Below, one piece after another: positions 23,260 through 23,580 of a DNA stretch of 28,052 bases. Source of the stretch: Anaerolineae bacterium (GTDB taxonomy: Bacteria > Chloroflexota > Anaerolineae > B4-G1). The DNA lies in NCBI GenBank assembly GCA_050050015.1, contig JASFVD010000001.1, positions 1-28,052 of the forward strand. Direction: 5' to 3'. How positions within the stretch are numbered: the first letter of the stretch is position 1; each line of letters begins with the position of its first letter. The translations under genes were made by a program, and so were the position numbers. The notes under the pieces are model-generated. The model ran no database searches and was not told the DNA's origin. It worked only from the letters and a program-made list of their open reading frames with translations.

Positions 23260-23580
23260 GTCACTGCAGGTCCCATTGGCCCGGAGATTGCTCTCCAGCT
23301 TTGTCTGAACCGGCTTGTGTCTTTGGAGGGGAAGATGGGGAGTGACCGACCCCAGGCGGCATCCGCCGAACGTTCGATTTTCCCTGCCTTGCGACAGGAA
23401 CCGCCTCCTCGTCACCCAGACTCTCGGTGCAATGACTCCTGAGCTCGAGCCGAACTCATAGTTCCCATGCCGTCACCCAGAAACACAGATCCGACAACAG
23501 CCCGACAGCCGTGGCTTGATCGTGCAAGCGCCTCGCACGTGGATTGGCTCACACCTCACACTTGTCTGGGGCAGGCGCTG
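23260..23580 (-). ncRNA. glmS ribozyme (GlcN6P-activated self-cleaving riboswitch), expanded variant
   Basis: Minus-strand core in canonical order: A^GCGCCUG (predicted cleavage between 23579 and 23578); P1 CCCAGAC (23570-23564)/GUCUGGG (23421-23415); GACGAGG (23413-23407); P2 AGGCGG/CCGCCU; AUCGAA...UUCGGCGGAUGCC; P3.1 pseudoknot GUCACU (23346-23341)/AGUGAC (23265-23260); P4 region AAAGCUGGAGA-GCAA-UCUCCGG. It lies directly upstream of glmS. Confidence 0.9.

Follow-up and report, generated by a model that had tools for sequence, protein, structure and literature searches.

To our knowledge, the glmS ribozyme is the only natural ribozyme that employs a metabolite as its cofactor, and it is usually called strikingly uniform. 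The canonical members of Rfam family RF00234 (Bacillus subtilis, B. anthracis and Thermoanaerobacter tengcongensis) are situated in the 5' untranslated region of glmS and are cut within the motif A↓GCGCC, the arrow marking the scissile bond. They share the core GACGAGGA, the P1 helix, the double pseudoknot made up of P2, P2.1 and P2.2, and a P3-P3.1-P4-P4.1 domain with a GNRA-capped P4.1 and A-rich internal loops. Departures from this plan are reportedly found in the Deinococcus-Thermus phylum, for which McCown, Roth and Breaker in 2011 (RNA 17:728) are said to have described glmS variants with additional core stems and altered core-supporting substructures. In group I introns and RNase P, peripheral expansion elements are thought to stabilise the conserved core, as stated in the form of a general principle in passages of PMC11602151. 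Among the papers covered by a literature search, none links glmS ribozymes with Anaerolineae.

The window analysed here, a stretch of 28,052 nucleotides from an Anaerolineae bacterium, carries on its minus strand (23588–23260) a complete glmS ribozyme. It is located in the 5' untranslated leader of the cell-wall gene glmS, upstream of the ORF start at 23166, and shows all of the canonical features listed above. Compared with the canonical form, it has a hairpin plus GAAA inside the 4-nt junction leading from P2 to P2.1, a P3-P4 linker of ~22 nt instead of ~4 nt, the 5' half of which pairs with the leader (helix P0), and a P1 loop of 142 nt; its score is under the curated threshold. Judging from comparative sequence evidence, we consider it probable that this RNA is a working glmS ribozyme-riboswitch of an Anaerolineae-wide subtype, in which the canonical scaffold is combined with three lineage-specific additions. 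The curated RF00234 model is devoid of all three.

The additions may overlap with the variants attributed to McCown et al. 2011, which, as reportedly described, represent the same kind of departure in a different phylum. They also resemble the expansion elements of the large ribozymes, by analogy only, in being lineage-specific, covarying and non-universal helices at the periphery or at junctions, and they bear on the evolution of such elements in ribozymes. In contrast to those of the large ribozymes, however, one addition is in direct contact with active-site nucleotides in the sequence and another with the scissile bond.

Identity and conserved core of the ribozyme

In permissive mode, RF00234 was aligned with positions 23590–23281 from end to end (model positions 1–167) at 24.5 bits (E = 0.0011, for a search of the 651-nt leader only). 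An Rfam scan of the same 651-nt leader gave only chance-level matches to other families. The true extent of the ribozyme slightly exceeds the model match, with the P3.1 strand ending at 23260 and the leader helix starting at 23588. The cut-site and core motifs (A↓GCGCC, GACGAGGA and AUCGA...UCGGCGGAUGCC) are all present, and P2, P2.1 and P2.2 can be formed. The individual features are compiled in Table 1. An earlier, sequence-only reading of this DNA had proposed a glmS ribozyme whose core is intact; the full-length RF00234 alignment, the consensus motifs and the GlmS ORF downstream all bear this out, and the coordinates given at that time, including the cut between A23579 and G23578, were exact on recheck.

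Table 1. Positions of the ribozyme elements and of glmS in the window, listed from the 5' to the 3' end of the transcript.
Feature	Position	Strand	Sequence and description	Basis
P0 leader strand	23581..23588	minus	GGGGGAAG; ends 2 nt upstream of the cut site; pairs with 23334-23327	
Cut-site motif	23574..23579	minus	A↓GCGCC; scissile bond A23579–G23578; GCGCC provides the 5' strand of P2.2 (pseudoknot)	
P1 5' strand	23564..23570	minus	CCCAGAC; pairs with 23421-23415	
P1-loop insert	23422..23563	minus	142 nt, weakly structured, unconserved	copy-number, similarity and fold tests
P1 3' strand	23415..23421	minus	GUCUGGG; partner of 23570-23564	
Core and P2 5' strand	23401..23413	minus	GACGAGGA (23413-23406), then GGCGG (23405-23401)	RF00234 consensus match
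Junction hairpin	23383..23398	minus	CCUGUC-GCAA-GGCAGG; GNRA loop at 23392-23389	covariation
Conserved junction	23378..23382	minus	GAAAA, directly before UCGA of P2.1	accompanies the insert
P2.1, P2.2 3' strand and P2 3' strand	23355..23377	minus	P2.1, UCG-AACGUU-CGG; P2.2 3' strand, GGCG within CGGCGGAUG	RF00234 alignment
P2 3' strand	23359-23355	minus	CCGCC	RF00234 alignment
P3 hairpin	23336..23354	minus	UGGGG/CCCCA (23354-23350 with 23340-23336)	91% paired
P3.1 5' strand	23347-23342	minus	P3 loop bases GGUCAC	P3.1 84% paired, 6/6 pairs compensatory
P0 3' strand	23327..23334	minus	CUUCCCCU; part of the long P3-P4 linker, starting one base 3' of P3	
P4	23266..23314	minus	GCCGGUUC (23314-23307) with GGACCUGC (23273-23266)	68% paired, 8/8 compensatory
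P4.1	23298-23281	minus	CUGGAGA-GCAA-UCUCCGG	96% paired, 7/7 compensatory
P3.1 3' strand	23260..23264	minus	GUGAC; 3' end of the ribozyme	covariation
Shine-Dalgarno sequence (SD) of glmS	23175-23171	minus	GGAGG	coordinates computed
glmS CDS	21322..23166	minus	614 aa	Pfam GATase_6/7 and two SIS domains

In an alignment of 37 sequences from relatives, covariation was found for P1, a 7-bp base helix located 3' of the cut site (alignment columns 23–29 with 63–69), for P2 (columns 79–84 with 226–231) and for P3. The cut-site motif of the window is identical to the RF00234 consensus and is invariant in the relatives, except for a G at position −1 in four of them. These ribozymes (L010, L022, L155 and L158) carry GGCGCC in place of the consensus AGCGCC, the rest being intact.

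RNAalifold was combined with pair counts from 29 relatives to define the helices of the 3' domain. P3, P3.1, P4 and P4.1 are all present, with compensatory changes in every pair of P3.1, P4 and P4.1. P4 encloses P4.1 and two A-rich internal loops. The P4 proposed by the Rfam alignment (CCCUCCA/UGGAGAG) was ruled out on covariation; in it, the 3' side of P4 is wrongly taken by the 5' strand of P4.1. This misregister is due to the ~22-nt P3-P4 linker of this lineage.

Detection by the Rfam model

At its gathering score (37 bits), RF00234 returned no match in the window. The insertions had been suspected to defeat detection by covariance models, and at the curated threshold this is the case; with 24.5 bits against 37, the ribozyme is missed by default annotation. 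An insert-free relative scores 78.2 bits, and a close relative with the same hairpin and a short P1 scores 41.9. The low score of the window is caused by the P1 insert, the hairpin and the long P3-P4 linker, which brings P4 out of register. The junction hairpin alone does not defeat Rfam, since examples from Clostridia and Acidimicrobiia reach 60–74 bits. Among 40 sampled ribozymes, 13 were below the threshold; 8 of these came from the 20 of the order sample, which includes the window, and 5 from the 20 of the class sample. With about one third of the sampled copies below threshold, regulation of glmS is under-called in Chloroflexota metagenomes.

A sub-threshold score and a very long P1 insert might also be the marks of a decaying, inactive glmS ribozyme relic that has been broken by insertions. 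We regard this as very improbable, because every conserved core motif and helix is intact and close relatives with a short P1 share the core at 77–87% identity, while the low score is accounted for by insert penalties and the misaligned P4.

The hairpin between P2 and P2.1

An extra GNRA hairpin at 23400–23381, between the 5' strand of P2 and the AUCGAA of P2.1, had been noticed in the sequence-only reading, in a junction that was said to be normally short. Coordinates and covariation confirm the hairpin, and the RF00234 consensus has indeed four nucleotides at this position. Of the 8 bp originally assigned to it, six are supported (CCUGUC/GGCAGG, 23398–23383). The two outer pairs, built from the invariant UU and GA bases of the junction, show no covariation.

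The relatives used for this comparison were ribozymes extracted from BLAST and pattern-search matches. In an alignment of 20 sequences, 94.6% of the cells were paired and 7/7 pairs were changed on both sides; registers slid by 1–3 columns, serving as a control, were paired at 39–53%. Sequences such as CUGCCCG/CGGGCAG, CUCACC/GGUGAG, CUCGCC/GGCGAG and UUCACU/AGUGAA take the place of CCUGUC/GGCAGG elsewhere, with the pairing kept. Nearly all ribozymes with the insert, the Clostridia examples among them, also have the GAAAA junction. In the window, the hairpin module with its flanks GGUU...GAAAAUCGA occupies 23400–23378 and is of the one-hairpin form. The first strand of P2.1, which follows it, contributes to the active site according to passages of PMC7125110. 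We infer that the junction hairpin most likely serves to brace the structure of the double-pseudoknot core.

Distribution of the junction hairpin

A pattern-confirmed glmS ribozyme is present in 89 of 401 Anaerolineae genomes. As counted from the list of these, about 76 have two hairpins in the arrangement GGUU-hairpin1-CUAA-hairpin2-GAAAAUCGA, 12 have one and a single ribozyme has none. Hence, the module occurs in 88/89 and the hairpin, taken at first for something unusual, is the norm within the class. In the order to which the window belongs, families f1 and f3 bear the insert at the P2-to-P2.1 junction; family f2 has a textbook junction and either an expanded P2.1 loop or no insert. One- and two-hairpin forms both occur in the genus of the window. 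Its four closest relatives (77–87% core identity) have the one-hairpin form, as does the window, which probably descends from the loss of a second hairpin. Particular to this window are its one-hairpin module and the 142-nt filler in P1. A natural deletion series is available in the congeners, with one or two junction hairpins and P1 loops ranging from a few bases to ~150 nt.

A different expansion was observed in L163–L173 (family f2), L054 and L075, where a hairpin of up to ~90 nt is accommodated inside the P2.1 loop and the junction is textbook. The P2.1 loop represents an alternative expansion site that adjoins the cofactor pocket; it is also used in a Ruminococcaceae MAG.

Among the matches listed, several Clostridia MAGs and one Acidimicrobiia MAG also have a hairpin at the P2-to-P2.1 junction, between the same UU...GAAAA flanks (e.g. 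DAWAJD010000005.1, Butyricicoccaceae; JAQXOO010000026.1, Clostridia; DATKBG010000165.1). The flanks UU-hairpin-GAAAAUCGA are the same and the loop is often GNRA. These ribozymes differ from the Anaerolineae form in having a short P1 and the higher scores given above, in being devoid of the leader-linker helix, and in that the hairpin is occasional and not the rule; in one Clostridia order it was found in 3 of 10 ribozymes. A contig pattern scan, which yields many chance matches in high-GC genomes, showed no Deinococcus-Thermus glmS ribozyme among the matches listed.

The P1 insert

The distance of 142 nt between the P1 strands (23563–23422) was reproduced exactly. Two hairpins had been proposed in this interval, of which CGUGCGAG-GCG-CUUGCACG (23539–23521) is present in the minimum-energy fold, and GAACU-AUG-AGUUC (23464–23452) gives way to a stronger hairpin that overlaps it (23458–23440). 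The insert is single-copy in the genome. It showed no similarity to other long P1 interiors past the first 14 nt, those of congeners included, and no match to any other Rfam family, and its fold is not more stable than that of dinucleotide shuffles (z = −1.20 and −1.55). A mobile or repeated element was ruled out on the basis of the single genomic copy, and a conserved domain on the basis of the missing similarity to other long P1 interiors and the non-significant fold.

Measured from the cut-site motif to GACGAGG, the length of P1 varies from 23 to ~200 nt among relatives, and within the genus the P1 span is 31 to 180 nt. Inserts of 53–84 nt in relatives are mostly simple extended rods. The P1 loop of L021 (G028:C219) consists of about seven tandem copies of the 14-nt unit GCACTGGTCTGTRA and represents a second, independent inflation of P1.

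Being single-copy, unconserved within the genus and no better folded than shuffles, the 142-nt insert looks like tolerated filler that is peculiar to this genome. It would be placed at the solvent-facing tip of P1. For core mutants of the T. tengcongensis ribozyme, passages of PMC7125110 describe the roles of P1 and P2 as purely structural. A point against our best explanation is that the insert could slow down folding during transcription, nucleation of the core being ascribed to P1.

It had further been suggested that the insertions could add a second regulatory input. The P1 insert is big enough for an aptamer and the junction hairpin adjoins active-site nucleotides, but a second sensor in either of them seems scarcely credible. 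The P1 interior has no homologue in the P1 of relatives, congeners included, and the single copy, the negative Rfam search and the shuffle-level folding all speak against the suggestion. In the hairpin, only pairing and loop type are conserved, as would be expected of a structural brace, and its length varies from 4 to >10 bp across phyla.

The leader-linker helix P0

The third addition, P0, was absent from the sequence-only reading. It is formed by the leader at about −10 to −3 and a strand located 3' of P3, and comprises 8 bp (−14.6 kcal/mol) in the window. Essentially all of the Anaerolineae ribozymes examined have this pairing, in differing sequences and with compensatory changes, e.g. GGAGGAAGA/UCUUCCUCC, GGGGAAAA/UUUUCCCC, GAAAAGA/UCUUUUC, GGGGC/GCCCC and GGGGACG/CGUCCCC. 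Sequences that are unrelated and yet complementary are found in different families, such as GAAUUGG/CCAAUUC, CCAUGACG/CGUCAUGG and GAGAAGC/GCUUCUC.

RNAalifold predicted P0 unprompted from a MAFFT alignment of 37 sequences. With 50 distinct ribozymes, cognate P0 duplexes had a mean energy of −13.97 kcal/mol, versus −11.13 ± 0.28 kcal/mol when the strands were re-dealt among genomes (z = −10; 0 of 5000 permutations). In this ungapped alignment of 37 sequences, the true register had the best covariation score (0.497, versus at most 0.386 for slid registers). Slid registers were still paired at 60–70% in this alignment, because the P0 strands are a purine run and a pyrimidine run. The strongest support for P0 comes from the minority of lineages in which the strands are non-repetitive.

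No P0-like pairing between leader and linker was found in the seven Clostridia and Acidimicrobiia ribozymes examined. In the Acidimicrobiia MAG (L038, DATKBG010000165.1, Actinomycetota), the hairpin at the junction is GGGG-AGAA-CCCC. At the site where Anaerolineae have the long-range P0, this ribozyme has a local hairpin, GGGGAA-UGCUG-UUCCCC, that stops 3 nt before the cut.

Given the position of its strands (leader −10 to −3 and 3' of P3), we infer a clamping role for P0, which would close the whole core and would set a helix beside the scissile bond. The version carried by the entire class has a helix beside the scissile bond and extra hairpins adjoining an active-site strand. For structural biology, this touches on the tolerance of the double-pseudoknot core and on the effect of a helix at −3 on catalysis and product release.

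Cleavage and control of glmS expression

As in the members studied, glucosamine-6-phosphate (GlcN6P) would bind to a preformed pocket of P2.1 and P2.2 and so induce the cut between A23579 and G23578, leaving a 5'-OH on the glmS mRNA; ligand dependence and catalytic activity are ascribed to this RNA by analogy. RNase J could then degrade the 5'-OH mRNA, with less GlmS synthesis as the consequence, if the process known from Bacillus applies. RNase J1 was reportedly identified as the responsible enzyme by Collins et al. in 2007. Decay of the 5'-OH mRNA is referred to in passages of a review citing Collins et al. 2007 (PMC5473149). An RNase J orthologue is above the curated cut-off in 19/20 relatives, with ~540–580 bits in 18 and 449 bits in G005; in G007 it is split across contigs. 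The assembly of the window itself (G000) yielded no full RNase J gene, likely because it is only 65% complete. A scan of the minus strand of the leader for promoters and terminators returned nothing, promoter-like sites included.

The sequence CCCUCC (23330–23325), which overlaps P0 at 23330–23327, is complementary to the glmS SD (GGAGGG, 23175–23170). P0 might accordingly be read as half of an expression platform, with the purine run of the leader as an SD mimic held on the post-P3 strand. Cleavage, 2 nt downstream of P0, would sever this leader and free the anti-SD, which would sequester the ribosome-binding site of glmS and block translation in addition to, or instead of, decay by RNase J. 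If true, a riboswitch class described as having no expression platform would contain a translational switch driven by a ribozyme. We consider it rather doubtful. The two overlapping pairings are of similar energy (P0 −14.6, SD −13.3 kcal/mol) and in many relatives pairing goes beyond the SD core (11 bp in G005, 9–10 bp in L201 and L203), several of them having CCUCCUG/CAGGAGG. Some of the leaders resemble an SD. As anecdotal evidence, three-way matches between leader, linker and SD flank were seen in L207 (GGGGACA / CGUCCCC / GGGAGGGGACA), L208 (GAGAAGC / GCUUCUCCUC / GGAGGAGAU) and L204 (GAGAAGACG / CGUCUUUCUC / GGAGAAACG). Cognate SD-linker duplexes were also better than permuted ones (20/5000, z = −2.6), but a control with the reversed, uncomplemented linker was nearly equal (z = −2.1), so that shared composition among kin explains most of the signal. 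Moreover, any CCUCC pairs with any SD, the pairing in the window amounts to only 6 bp, and ribozymes in which P0 is not SD-like (L205, L199 and L039) show little SD complementarity, which is missing altogether in some lineages.

Complementarity of the post-P3 strand to the SD region was also seen in L011, L201, L203, L207 and L208, in some cases over 9–11 bp and with concerted changes in leader, linker and SD flank, a signal barely exceeding that of a composition control. Downstream of the P0 strand, the P3-P4 linker contains the motif CCUCCUGAGAU, which is conserved in many relatives and reads CCUCCAAAGAC in the window (23324–23315); pairing with the SD region is possible and is the sole candidate for its partner.
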